Shown piece by piece: positions 29,981 through 34,699 of a DNA stretch of 64,000 nucleotides. How positions within the stretch are numbered: the stretch's first letter is position 1; the number at the start of each line of letters is the position of its first letter. The stretch covers positions 384,001 to 448,000 of the forward strand of contig CM000429.1 in the NCBI GenBank assembly GCA_000165345.1, read 5' to 3'. Both the position numbers and the translations under genes were made by a program. The notes beneath the pieces are model-generated. The model made no database searches. It saw nothing but the letters and a program-made list of their open reading frames with translations, and had not been told where the DNA came from.

Positions 29981-31519
29981 ATGATATTAAAAAATATGCA
30001 TCTAAGTAAGAATATAATTTCAAGAAAAAGTGCCAAGCTTCAGTTTTACCGTTTTTCAAAGCTCTGGCATAGCGAAGTAATATTTAAAACAGTTATAGTG
30101 GCATTACTAATTGTAATAAACATTATATTATTGATATATACATTGATAAAGATTGATGGAAATAAATGTGATGATTTCTTAGCTTTATTTGGGTGGATGC
30201 TATTACTTTTATATTGTGGAGTCTTAATTGATATTGAGTCTTCCAGAAGTTTGAAAATTTGTCTTTCAATTTTAATTCTTATTAATTTAGTGTGCATTGA
30301 GAAAAACATTTTAATGGTTGGAATTACAATTGACTTTTTAAATTTAGGAGTTCTCTGGCCTATTTTTAAGTATGGAGAAATACGTTTAGATTCAGAGGAA
30401 TATTATGAAGATGAATATATTCTGCCATTAATTGACAGTAGTAAGAAGTTATTAAATGTATACTATGAACTTTGGAGAAGAAATAGCTATGGAGGAATTA
30501 AAAGCTACAATGGGCTACTTGTAACTAGATGCGTAATAATGTCTTGTATATTCCTTTGTATTTTATTATTTAATACAGTTGATAAATACACTAATTTTGG
30601 CAAAAACAAATTTACAGAATTGCAAAACATAATCTATTTAAGAAGTACACAAATTATATCAAAAACCGAATCTATTGATAAAATATCCAAAATTGGAGGT
30701 AACGGTATATTTATAGCACAAATCATGATTATTACTTTAGCTGTGTTGCTAAAGCCGGTCTTATCAAAACTTGTTAATTTAATAATAGTATTCAAGAATA
30801 AATGCATATTAACGCTAAAAAGCAATGAAATGAGTGATGGGAAAGTAAAGCAAATAGTTAAATTTAATGATTACGAGTTTAATCATCAAAATTTGGATAT
30901 TGAATCTAACAAACAGAATGCTTTTATTAATCAGAATAAATTGCTCAATAGTTGTATATTTTTTTTTTCCGTATTTCTATTTGGAATAATAACATGTGAA
31001 AATAGGGAATTTGATATAATTTCAAGGATGTTTTTGATTGAACAAGATAAGACAATTGTGCTATGCATTTTATTGCCCTTAATTGGCTTGCTAACTGAAA
31101 TTTCTACGTTCAGAGATTGGTGTTGGTACTTCATTTTCTCATGGGTTATATATTGTTTTAATATTTGGTCAGATAATTCAATGGTAAAGAGTATCGCTAG
31201 TATACTTTCAGGAGTGCTCTTCAACATATCGGCGATATTATTTGTTATAAATCAGACAAAAAACTCAAGTAATAATAATAAAGTTCGGGAATATATTCTT
31301 ACAAGTTATATTTTTCAAAAGATGTGTTATTTTTTGGGGTGTAGTATGTCGAAAAAAGTTTTTTCAAGTCATGAAAGTAGCATTATAAAAAATATATATT
31401 TAATCATCACAAATATTATAATAATTTTTAACTTATATTTTCTTCTTTATTTTAGTTCGAGTCGAGAAATAGCTTCTAAGCAAGACGACAATGAAATTGA
31501 GTGGGATGTAGTATATTAG
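29981..31519 (+). CDS. Hypothetical multi-pass membrane protein (512 aa)
   Basis: A long ORF with at least 8 predicted hydrophobic helices and no recognisable family motif. Its stop codon directly abuts the stop of the convergent CDC50 gene. Confidence 0.6.
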   Translation: MILKNMHLSKNIISRKSAKLQFYRFSKLWHSEVIFKTVIVALLIVINIILLIYTLIKIDGNKCDDFLALFGWMLLLLYCGVLIDIESSRSLKICLSILILINLVCIEKNILMVGITIDFLNLGVLWPIFKYGEIRLDSEEYYEDEYILPLIDSSKKLLNVYYELWRRNSYGGIKSYNGLLVTRCVIMSCIFLCILLFNTVDKYTNFGKNKFTELQNIIYLRSTQIISKTESIDKISKIGGNGIFIAQIMIITLAVLLKPVLSKLVNLIIVFKNKCILTLKSNEMSDGKVKQIVKFNDYEFNHQNLDIESNKQNAFINQNKLLNSCIFFFSVFLFGIITCENREFDIISRMFLIEQDKTIVLCILLPLIGLLTEISTFRDWCWYFIFSWVIYCFNIWSDNSMVKSIASILSGVLFNISAILFVINQTKNSSNNNKVREYILTSYIFQKMCYFLGCSMSKKVFSSHESSIIKNIYLIITNIIIIFNLYFLLYFSSSREIASKQDDNEIEWDVVY

Positions 31520-32542
31520 TTATATCGATTCTAAGAAGCTTCTCAATATAATTTTTAATGTATTGCACGGACAAGATAACATAAAAATAAATAAAAAAGA
31601 TATTGTGAATAACCATACGCTCCAAATCAAGAAGAAATAGCTTGCTTTAATATTTTTACTACCAAGAAACGACACTCTTTCAATTCCTAATCTTTTTTTC
31701 GAGTTAAAATTTTCTGCTGGCCACATATTATCAATCATTTTAATCTCGTATTTTCCCCTTTCTAATCCATGAGGTATTTGACCCCAAACCATTTTGAAGC
31801 TGGGAAGCCATGCACCATGCATCCAGATTCTGTAATGTATGTCTGTGGTTTTTATCCACATCATTTTGTTGTATGGGACTGCAAACATTGAAAAATCATT
31901 TTTCAGTGATAACTGGTCAATTTCAACGTTAAGCAATTCTTTTTTGCCATCCTCTTTTAACATATATATCTCAAATTTGTCATTATAAAACGTGATGGAT
32001 GACAATCCACATGGTATCAGGGGTACTTCTTCACCAGTTTCATCAATTTTTTCTACTTGGATTTTATTTATATAGTTATCAAGAGTGTTTCCACGAACTT
32101 GGCGTAAGTAAGTAATTGTTTTTGCTGTCCCACAAGTAAAACCTGGGAAAATATCTGAAGGCCTGCTTTGAACATAGGATCGGAAATTTTGATAAAAGTT
32201 ATCTATATATATATTTATATTTACTGGCCCAGTAATATCATTCTCTATATTGAATATTAGGCTGCTTACGTTCTTTTGTATCGGTTCACTAATATACTCT
32301 ACATATGAGTTGCTTCTATAATTGAAAAAGAAAAATGCTGCAAATACTGCATGAAAGACGCCACCAATTAAGAACAAAATAATTGCAATTTTTGGTGAAA
32401 ATAGATACTTCCCAGGATTCCAAATCTTCATATCCTGTTGTACAAATGATTCTAAGATTTCATCAACTTTTTTCTCGCCCTTTCTTAGCCGTTGTATCCA
32501 AACCAAATTTGAAAGTTCGTGCCTATAATAGTTCGAGTTCAT
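31520..32542 (-). CDS. CDC50/LEM3-family protein (P4-ATPase flippase beta subunit)
   Basis: FVQQDMKIWNP precedes TM1, then a large ectodomain with conserved cysteines including LIPCGLSSITFYNDKF (the family PCG motif), then a C-terminal TM (YFFLIWSVWLFTISFLFIFML). Confidence 0.8.
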   Translation of the reverse strand: MNSNYYRHELSNLVWIQRLRKGEKKVDEILESFVQQDMKIWNPGKYLFSPKIAIILFLIGGVFHAVFAAFFFFNYRSNSYVEYISEPIQKNVSSLIFNIENDITGPVNINIYIDNFYQNFRSYVQSRPSDIFPGFTCGTAKTITYLRQVRGNTLDNYINKIQVEKIDETGEEVPLIPCGLSSITFYNDKFEIYMLKEDGKKELLNVEIDQLSLKNDFSMFAVPYNKMMWIKTTDIHYRIWMHGAWLPSFKMVWGQIPHGLERGKYEIKMIDNMWPAENFNSKKRLGIERVSFLGSKNIKASYFFLIWSVWLFTISFLFIFMLSCPCNTLKIILRSFLESI

Positions 32543-32859
32543 TCTTATGTGGCAATTCTATCATATACAATGGATGTAAATTAAGTTATATTGGATCTTA
32601 GGATAGATATTTTTAGAGCCGTATTTTTAAATATATTTTAAACATTTTTCATAGACCTAAATAATAATCCGGTATTTTCCTTCAGACGCAGAAAAAAATT
32701 TCTGCCCTCGAGAAAAAAATCGCGTATTTTTAATGAGATGTAAATATTTATATTATTAACGCATTTATGTCTTAAATTTTACTAGAAATCAATATAAATT
32801 AGAAAAATAATACTATTCTACTAGATATTTCTAAAGTTATTAATTGTCGTAAAACGATT

Positions 32860-33126
32860 CTATTTATGAATTAGCGTATACATTGTAGTCCATGTTAGAA
32901 TAAATGTTACTAGACATGTAGCAACATTTTCTATGACAATTTCTGTAGGATCTAAAATTCTTTCTGGAATATCAAGTAAATTAAGATATGTGGTTCCAAT
33001 AAATACTAATCCAAGTATTGCAGAAATAAGAACTGTGGCACCCTTAAGTCCAAATATTCCACATCCTACACCAAATAAAAGTGCACAAATTTGGAGAATC
33101 CAATAGGTTATAAGAGAAACTTCGTC
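32860..33126 (-). CDS. EMC6: EMC6 (ER membrane protein complex subunit 6), exon 2, including the stop
   Basis: Not in the ORF track. The minus-strand translation ...GVGCGIFGLKGATVLISAILGLVFIGTTYL...TFILTWTTMYTLIHK* matches the EMC6/TMEM93 two-helix core and the C-terminal FxWTxxYxxxH tail. Confidence 0.6.
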   Translation of the reverse strand, partial: DEVSLITYWILQICALLFGVGCGIFGLKGATVLISAILGLVFIGTTYLNLLDIPERILDPTEIVIENVATCLVTFILTWTTMYTLIHK

Positions 33127-33173
33127 CTGAAAATTTGATTTTCTTGTTTAGTGAGTAATTAAACTTAACTTAC

Positions 33174-33290
33174 CCTAGTCCACTCAAATGTTGCATCTGC
33201 TTTGATCGCCTTAGTAAGAAGAGAATAGTTTCTGTTATTTGTAATTTTTTCACGGATATTTTCAAAAAATTTTAATTGATTAATTGTCAT
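33174..33290 (-). CDS. EMC6: EMC6, exon 1 (39 codons)
   Basis: ATG at 33290 (minus). The exon ends at a canonical donor GTAAGT (plus-strand ACTTAC at 33168..33173). The 47-nt intron 33127..33173 has a TTTTCAG acceptor and is phase 0. Confidence 0.55.
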
Positions 33291-33316
33291 TGTTACAATT
33301 GCTCTTTCTGACGAAT

Positions 33317-34699
33317 TTATTTAAAAAGGTCTATATTGTCATTCGGCGCGTCGATTGAGTATTTAACTTCTATACAGCCGTTTACATATAGCCATGAAAT
33401 TATGGATTTTACTGTTTTTAATGCTTCATCGCGATTAGAAGAGTATATTTTATCAGAGGATTCATATGGATAATAAATTAAATGCTCAGATGCTCTTTTT
33501 TCTCTAGTAAATTTTTGGAAGAATTCAACAAGCTCACTTCTAACATCGCAAAGTTTCTTTCCATTACAAAAAAATGAGCTAATCAATATAAGTGGGTTAC
33601 ATCCTTTCCAGTCAATAATATCTTTGTATTTTAAGTTAAATCTATTTACTTGAGTTTTTATCGAATCAGGGCAAATTACATAAACTTTGTCATATCTTAT
33701 TATTTCCAAAACCTTTGCAACTTTTTTAGTAATCAGTTTTTGGCAAACCTTCAAAATATTTGATGGTTGTTCTAAAAGTTCAACTGAAATATCCCTGATG
33801 GATAAGTGTGGGTCTGCAATATTCGAAATTTCGTTTATAAGTTCATTTTCTTTATATATATTAGAAAGTTTAGACTTATCAATATAAAAAGTTAATTTAT
33901 CATATAAACTCTCTACAGGGTTTTGGAGGCAATTATTATCGATTGAAGAAAAAAAATGGTGTGGTTTTGATGGCGTTACTGTAAAATCATTGCAATCAAT
34001 TTTTAATCTCGTAAAATATTTAATAAGCTTTTTCGAAAGCCTATTGTTTTTCTCAACTATAGAAAAGATATGCTCCTGCAAATTACTTCTTTCAGACCCA
34101 CTTAAGTTAATATGTTCACTTCCAATCGACGCACCACCTTTATTATTCTGGAAACTCTTATATAAATTCTTCAAATACTCGAACGAAGTTTCATTGGACC
34201 TCAAAATTTCTACAGAAATAAAGTTATTGGCAATTTCACATGATAAAAGAGTACTTGTAATTCTAAATAGCTTTTCTTCTATGAATTCATAGTTTATCAA
34301 AGTTGATGCAATAAATACTAATGTTACGGAGAAACTTTCGATAAATTTATCCAACTCGAGATTTCTATTATCTATATTAATCTTTTTTTGATTATTATTA
34401 AATAAGGCTTGATTTAAGGATTTTGTATGGATTGTTGAACTTGGGAAGAAAACAAATCTATGCTGAAAATCTTTGGACTCAATGACTAAATCGGACATTT
34501 TGTTCCATAATGCTGAGTCAGATGGTAGAATCAAAGGTGCAAGTTTAGAGCATTCATGTCCAAAGCATTCCTTGGTTTGAATAACATTTTTCTCATTTAA
34601 TATAGAAAAGGAGCTCGGGGGATGGTAAAATATAATCTCAGGTTCTTGATATGGCCATTTGACAGTTAAAATGATTCCTACTAAGTCAAAACCGCACAT
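33317..34699 (-). CDS. Hypothetical protein with an N-terminal longin-like start, possibly NPRL2/NPR2 (GATOR1)-like
   Basis: The N-terminus MCGFDLVGIILTVKWPYQEPEIIFYHPP resembles the NPRL2 start ([25 protein letters not shown]). A mid-region ISNIADPHLSIRDISVE resembles the NPRL2 YIDGFRHIQKISAEADVE block. The family call is weak and made by eye. Confidence 0.55.
   Translation of the reverse strand: MCGFDLVGIILTVKWPYQEPEIIFYHPPSSFSILNEKNVIQTKECFGHECSKLAPLILPSDSALWNKMSDLVIESKDFQHRFVFFPSSTIHTKSLNQALFNNNQKKINIDNRNLELDKFIESFSVTLVFIASTLINYEFIEEKLFRITSTLLSCEIANNFISVEILRSNETSFEYLKNLYKSFQNNKGGASIGSEHINLSGSERSNLQEHIFSIVEKNNRLSKKLIKYFTRLKIDCNDFTVTPSKPHHFFSSIDNNCLQNPVESLYDKLTFYIDKSKLSNIYKENELINEISNIADPHLSIRDISVELLEQPSNILKVCQKLITKKVAKVLEIIRYDKVYVICPDSIKTQVNRFNLKYKDIIDWKGCNPLILISSFFCNGKKLCDVRSELVEFFQKFTREKRASEHLIYYPYESSDKIYSSNRDEALKTVKSIISWLYVNGCIEVKYSIDAPNDNIDLFK

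Follow-up and report, generated by a model that had tools for sequence, protein, structure and literature searches.

Gene structure and neighbourhood

The window analysed here is a stretch of 64,000 nucleotides of Cryptosporidium parvum DNA (GenBank assembly GCA_000165345.1, contig CM000429.1, forward-strand positions 384,001 to 448,000), and all coordinates given below refer to it. Positions 32543..33316 look empty to a program that lists open reading frames (ORFs), because of the length filter applied in such a listing, whereas public annotations place a gene there. A sequence-only reading had called this an apparently empty gap, which holds for the ORF lister alone, and had proposed that it hides a small spliced gene. 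Upon re-reading and translating the minus strand of 32500..33700, we found its coordinates for this gene, from the strand and the start codon to the exons, the intron and the length of the product, to be exact to the base.

Exon 1 (33290..33174, minus strand, 117 nt) comprises an ATG and 38 further codons, translated as MTINQ...ATFEWTR; the ATG at 33290 is the first start codon past an in-frame stop. It is followed by a phase-0 intron of 47 nt (33173..33127, minus strand) with the sequence GTAAGTTAAGTTTAATTACTCACTAAACAAGAAAATCAAATTTTCAG, which begins with GTAAGT and ends with TTTTCAG. Exon 2 (33126..32860, minus strand, 267 nt) adds 88 codons, translated as DEVSLITYW...MYTLIHK, and a TAG stop codon. 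The spliced product has 127 aa and a C-terminal end reading ...TFILTWTTMYTLIHK. The cytosolic helices at the N-terminus and the first half of a motif, EW-x-[KR]-DE, that is typical of the protein OPTI (see below) come from exon 1, whereas exon 2 encodes three membrane helices and the entire match to the Pfam family PF07019.

Read unspliced, the frame opened by the ATG ends after 41 codons (a 41-aa ORF at 33165..33290), as the intron contains an in-frame stop after two codons. The open frame of exon 2 runs to 95 codons, and its sole in-frame ATG, GTG or TTG is an ATG at codon 82. This is the reason why no ORF is listed over exon 2, even at a minimum of 30 aa, and it also means that the membrane domain can be translated only with exon 1 spliced on; the translation of exon 2 by itself was ruled out on these grounds. 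A 57-aa ORF on the plus strand (32933..33106), antisense to exon 2, was found to be without support.

Upstream of the small gene and on the same strand lies a gene for a protein of 460 aa, whose stop codon occupies 33319..33317. The spacer between this stop codon and the ATG of the small gene (33291..33316) measures only 26 nt, compared to 46-74 nt in other Cryptosporidium species. With a spacer of this size, the small gene must have its promoter and 5'UTR within the coding or 3' region of the upstream gene, or else the two genes share a transcript. The 460-aa gene itself (33317..34699, minus strand) has kept its position and its length (449-463 aa) across the genus and has no Pfam match on record.

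On the other side of the small gene there is a convergent pair, consisting of a gene for a 512-aa multi-pass protein without Pfam match (29981..31519, plus strand) and a gene of the CDC50/LEM3 family (31520..32542, minus strand). The two abut at 31519/31520 with zero bases between their stop codons, and their 3'UTRs must therefore overlap on opposite strands.

Conservation in Cryptosporidium

A word-indexed search of 5.8 billion proteins yielded orthologues in C. hominis (98% identity) and C. ubiquitum (82%), as well as in C. canis, C. felis, C. serpentis and C. muris (58-71%). Across the whole genus, the identity of orthologues ranges from 55% to 98%, and residues W37 and T38 are invariant. 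The order of the genes is also kept across the genus, with a RING/DUF2921 protein, the 460-aa protein, the small gene, CDC50, the 512-aa protein and a DDRGK protein following each other.

In all six species compared, a phase-0 intron is located at the homologous codon boundary, between …EW[TS][KR] and DE[VA]SL…, and carries the splice signals GTAAG[TC]...[TC]AG. It has a length of 47 nt in C. parvum, 46 in C. ubiquitum, 43 in C. felis, 45 in C. canis, 49 in C. bovis and 64 in C. muris. These lengths are mostly not multiples of three, and on reading through the intron a stop codon is met in all but one of the six species. Exon 2 measures 267 nt in every one of the six, and exon 1 measures 117 nt in five of them and 105 nt in C. 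bovis. Substitutions in exon 2 are dominated by third codon positions, with 9, 3 and 31 differences at the first, second and third positions relative to C. ubiquitum and 13, 5 and 38 relative to C. canis. Exon 1 has the same third-position bias in a weaker form. Such a bias is the mark of purifying selection.

These observations bear on the possibility that there is no functional spliced gene at this locus, but a chance juxtaposition of ORF pieces or a decaying pseudogene, for which one could point to the fact that neither exon is listed on its own as an ORF of at least 60 aa. The exon lengths, the reading frame, the position of the intron and the splice signals are, however, shared by C. parvum with species as distant as C. 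muris, the substitutions follow the pattern of purifying selection, and the homology to OPTI continues unbroken over the exon junction, the alignment to the OPTI chain 7tut_9 starting at residue 21. Further, independent annotations of several species agree on the model. Judged by these comparative data, which contradict it, a pseudogene or non-gene would have to be regarded as excluded, and we see practically no chance that it is the correct explanation. In view of the Pfam match, the orthologues, the conserved intron, the constant exon 2, the gene order and the homology that spans the junction, the gene and its splice appear as secure as comparative evidence allows.

Deposited models of this gene in other species depart from the conserved structure in two ways. 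In C. canis, the 45-nt intron is in frame and free of stop codons; in the deposited model it is translated (…WTRVSLKTIIYLTKKLPQDEV…), and the start is placed at an upstream ATG. Read-through proteins of this type have been deposited with 151 aa and with 142 aa. Splicing the C. canis gene at the conserved sites restores a protein of 127 aa. In C. bovis (625 aa) and C. xiaoi (637 aa), the deposited models fuse the upstream gene of the 460-aa type to the small gene of the OPTI type. The small gene of C. bovis by itself encodes 123 aa and has a 49-nt intron. A natural fusion of the two genes in C. bovis was ruled out, since the upstream ORF ends at a TAA of its own, 53 nt ahead of the small gene's ATG; the fusion model is thus an artefact of annotation.

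Existing annotation

GenBank and UniProt already contain this gene with its two exons and its family label, for C. parvum as well as for its relatives. An exact-sequence look-up found four C. parvum accessions for the identical 127-aa protein (QOY43451.1, TRY53573.1, KAL5370417.1, WKS76077.1), all of which bear the name 'Rab5-interacting protein'. A gene of 431 nt and 127 aa is called at the locus in three C. parvum assemblies, and in CP044422.1 the gene is identical in sequence to that in the window. In the current records of C. parvum, C. hominis and C. meleagridis, the gene is modelled with two exons and 127 aa throughout.

The 2004 Iowa II model, XP_628017.1, is different. It spans 32860..33144, is labelled 'partial' and has 95 aa without a start codon, beginning with TRKSNFQDEVSL…; it consists of exon 2 extended back by seven codons into the intron, and exon 1 is missing. 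The description of this gene as missed, given in the sequence-only reading, is therefore apt for the 2004 model, but not for current records. A further ENA entry, from C. hominis, comprises exon 1 and its continuation into the intron, 41 aa in all. The example illustrates how short spliced genes escape filters on ORF length when a genome is as compact as this one, and it also reveals the 2004 reference as an incomplete model.

Family membership and assignment to a paralogue

Compared to the Pfam profile PF07019 (EMC6/Rab5ip), the spliced 127-aa product obtained a score of 53.4 bits (E=3.7e-14) over profile positions 2-81 of 81, far above the gathering cutoff of 23.3 bits; exon 2 alone scored 54.7 bits. 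The family similarity for which the earlier reading had suggested such a search is thus borne out. Three other Pfam entries, the PspC transmembrane region, Bt_P21 and DUF5455, were matched with E-values of 0.04-0.1, far under their cutoffs, and were discarded as noise from hydrophobic helices.

PF07019 was formerly named Rab5ip and is now named EMC6. It takes in two eukaryotic paralogues, EMC6 (TMEM93) and C20orf24/RAB5IF, which is also called OPTI (PMC9630114; PMC8675477). A match to this family leaves two identities to be considered. One is that the protein is a true EMC6, as had been proposed from the sequence alone, and the current name of the Pfam family speaks for it, as do the fold and the W..Y..H motif near the C-terminus, which the protein shares with EMC6. 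The resemblance of the C-terminal tail to EMC6 had been taken as support for this identity; it is real, yet the tail is common to both OPTI and EMC6 and for this reason does not tell the two apart.

To OPTI and EMC6, the protein is related to very different degrees. In a phmmer search of all PDB chains with the 127-aa query, OPTI (C20orf24/RAB5IF, 7tut_9) was matched at E=6.6e-8 over residues 21-126 of 127, whereas no EMC6 chain was matched at E<=10. In the control, human EMC6 as query found yeast EMC6 at E=5e-4 but did not find OPTI at E<=0.01, from which it follows that the method detects relatives of EMC6 and that the two clades are separable. A profile built from seven Cryptosporidium sequences (the genus profile) matched OPTI in the PDB at 7e-12 (48.5 bits), yeast EMC6 at 0.22 and human EMC6 at 7.2, and thereby ranked EMC6 chains about 11 orders of magnitude or more behind OPTI. 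When scored directly, the 127-aa query reached 34.2 bits with OPTI versus 6.5 and 4.2 bits with EMC6.

A search of 1.84 billion representatives with the genus profile and no word index gave 146 matches at E<=1e-3, and at this threshold retrieved no EMC6-type protein. For 145 of the 146 we computed scores with three references, human OPTI and the EMC6 of human and yeast; OPTI was the best reference for all of them save one, an 87-aa fragment without a match to any reference, so that all scorable relatives in the database are OPTI-like. In addition, the motif W-x-K-(D/E)-E…(aromatic)W-x-x-Q, located before helix 1, is present in the C. parvum protein (EWTRDEVSLITYWILQ) and absent from human EMC6. 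Another rendering of this motif is EW-x-K-DE...(Y/H/W)W..Q. Within a set of 18 OPTI-type sequences, W48 is invariant and W37 nearly so.

The protein is therefore closer kin to OPTI than to EMC6, which always came second by a wide margin. The identification as EMC6/TMEM93 stands at the level of the family and is not supported at the level of the paralogue, where phmmer, the genus profile, Foldseek (see below) and the scores of the homologues all favour OPTI.

Structural comparison

The AlphaFold model of the protein (pLDDT 77, pTM 0.66) has two short N-terminal helices, formed by residues 3-17 and 20-30, and three long hydrophobic helices, formed by residues 39-64, 69-90 and 99-126. According to this model, the protein would consist almost entirely of membrane helices, with about 38 cytosolic residues. 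The description of the product as a protein with two transmembrane segments, as given in the sequence-only reading, is at odds with the three hydrophobic helices.

In a Foldseek search of the PDB with this model, the best seven matches were all OPTI or EMC6 chains. The top match was OPTI (7tut_9), with TM 0.71/0.81 and an rmsd of 2.3 Å over 107 columns at 28% sequence identity, whereas the chains of human EMC6 were matched with TM 0.50-0.52/0.60-0.63 and an rmsd of about 4 Å.

The C. parvum protein and OPTI (PDB 7TUT, chain 9) are nearly equal in length (127 vs 129 aa), colinear over residues 21-126 and of the same three-helix fold, and they share both the N-terminal motif W-x-KDE...YW..Q and the C-terminal motif W..Y..H. 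Yet they are only 28% identical and differ in the loop between helices 2 and 3, which reads LDIPERILDP in Cryptosporidium, where it is invariant across the genus, and is the acidic QIDEEEYGG in mammals. The likeness to EMC6 (PDB 6WW7, chain F; 6WB9, chain 6) comprises the membership in PF07019, the three-helix fold (Foldseek probability 0.85-1.0), a glycine-rich helix 1, the C-terminal W..Y motif and an analogous role as the small partner of an insertase of the Oxa1 superfamily. The sequence scores for EMC6 are, however, at noise level (E 0.22-7.2), EMC6 is without the N-terminal motif, and its structural fit is poorer.

Relatives outside the genus

The nearest relatives outside Cryptosporidium were found in Platyproteum, Gregarina, Vitrella, Neospora, Besnoitia, Cystoisospora and Hammondia (HHA_222090), and were matched by the genus-only profile with E-values from 1e-14 to 1e-8. 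Where these myzozoan and apicomplexan proteins have been given a functional name, it is Rab5-interacting protein. They belong to the same length class as the C. parvum protein and have the same motifs, but are only 20-30% identical to it. The gene numbers of Hammondia presumably follow those of the Toxoplasma orthologues, according to the ToxoDB convention, in which case HHA_222090 would correspond to TGME49_222090.

A published survey on the ER membrane protein complex gives TGME49_239690 as the EMC6 of Toxoplasma and PF3D7_1214400 as that of P. falciparum (Wideman 2015). The coccidian orthologue HHA_222090 thus bears a different number from the Toxoplasma EMC6, a comparison made by gene number and not by sequence. 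Provided that the numbering convention applies, both paralogues are present in coccidians, and the Cryptosporidium gene has its orthologue in the one that is not EMC6.

In C. parvum, the same survey found EMC1-4 and EMC8, but not EMC5, 6, 7 and 10 (Wideman 2015). As EMC3, encoded by cgd8_2780, is kept and no EMC6 is reported, the partner for EMC3 is unaccounted for, and this vacancy is the one positive argument that can be made for a true EMC6. Set against it are the ranking of EMC6 by the genus profile, the failure of the single-sequence search to match any EMC6 chain when the control finds yeast EMC6, the OPTI-like character of the relatives together with the N-terminal motif, and the differing coccidian gene numbers. 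A true EMC6 is in our view quite improbable.

Proposed function

Taken together, our results make it likely that the gene is the orthologue of RAB5IF/C20orf24/OPTI on C. parvum chromosome 1, encoded in two exons with 127 aa, and a putative partner of TMCO1 in the endoplasmic reticulum (ER). It is an ordinary housekeeping gene. Equivalent roles as small partners are played by EMC6 for EMC3 and by GET2 for GET1.

In mammals, TMCO1 and its obligate partner OPTI make up the GEL complex, which is part of the multipass translocon (PMC9630114; PMC8675477). The dependence between the two proteins is mutual, and OPTI has EMC6 and GET2 as homologues (PMC9630114). C20orf24 has also been described as a paralogue of EMC6 that co-occurs with TMCO1 (PMC8675477), whereas EMC6 itself belongs to the ER membrane protein complex, as the partner of EMC3 (PMC9630114; PMC8675477). 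Going by this homology, the C. parvum protein would be a small protein of the ER membrane and the obligate partner of TMCO1, an insertase of the Oxa1 superfamily. If the mammalian system is a guide, the OPTI-type protein and TMCO1 would stabilize each other, the pair would dock beside Sec61 on translating ribosomes, and there it may help to insert the transmembrane segments of multipass proteins.

For TMCO1 in P. falciparum, a gene is catalogued (PF3D7_1362300), and the partner is therefore present in Apicomplexa, a statement that concerns its presence in the phylum only. In a search with human TMCO1, using a query identical in sequence to PDB 6w6l, the best 120 of 903 matches were all to animal or unnamed sequences. 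Searches of the literature found nothing that joins TMCO1, or 'calcium load-activated', with Cryptosporidium, and nothing that joins 'Rab5-interacting protein' with Cryptosporidium.

The name under which the protein is deposited suggests another main function, namely that of a regulator of endocytosis or autophagy that binds Rab5, and not that of a translocon subunit. A report of an interaction between human EMC6 and RAB5A during the formation of autophagosomes (cited in Wideman 2015) points in the same direction. The name 'Rab5-interacting protein' is, however, inherited from the family, and the mammalian orthologue is seen, in a solved structure, as part of the multipass translocon bound to the ribosome, where it and TMCO1 are mutually dependent. 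Further, the protein is by its AlphaFold model built almost wholly of membrane helices, with roughly 38 cytosolic residues. We thus consider a role centred on Rab5 unlikely, and the assignment to the translocon as partner of TMCO1 the better supported.

With a canonical EMC6 and EMC5 lost and EMC3 kept in Cryptosporidium (Wideman 2015), the OPTI-type protein may be the sole member of the EMC6 family there and, in that case, could partner EMC3, either alone or besides TMCO1. We hold this to be very improbable; if it were true, one shared accessory subunit would serve two Oxa1-type insertases in a reduced parasite.

For the annotation of the family, the assignment to OPTI means that the Pfam name 'EMC6' is misleading for this protein, for which 'OPTI/RAB5IF-type' is the apt label. 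Since the protein belongs to the OPTI/RAB5IF paralogue, it should not be used to fill the slot of the 'missing EMC6' in reconstructions of the Cryptosporidium EMC. For the biology of the parasite, the presence of an OPTI-type protein suggests that, of the multipass translocon, Cryptosporidium probably keeps the GEL module at least, and the retention of this module would be relevant to the question of how a reduced parasite makes its multipass transporters.
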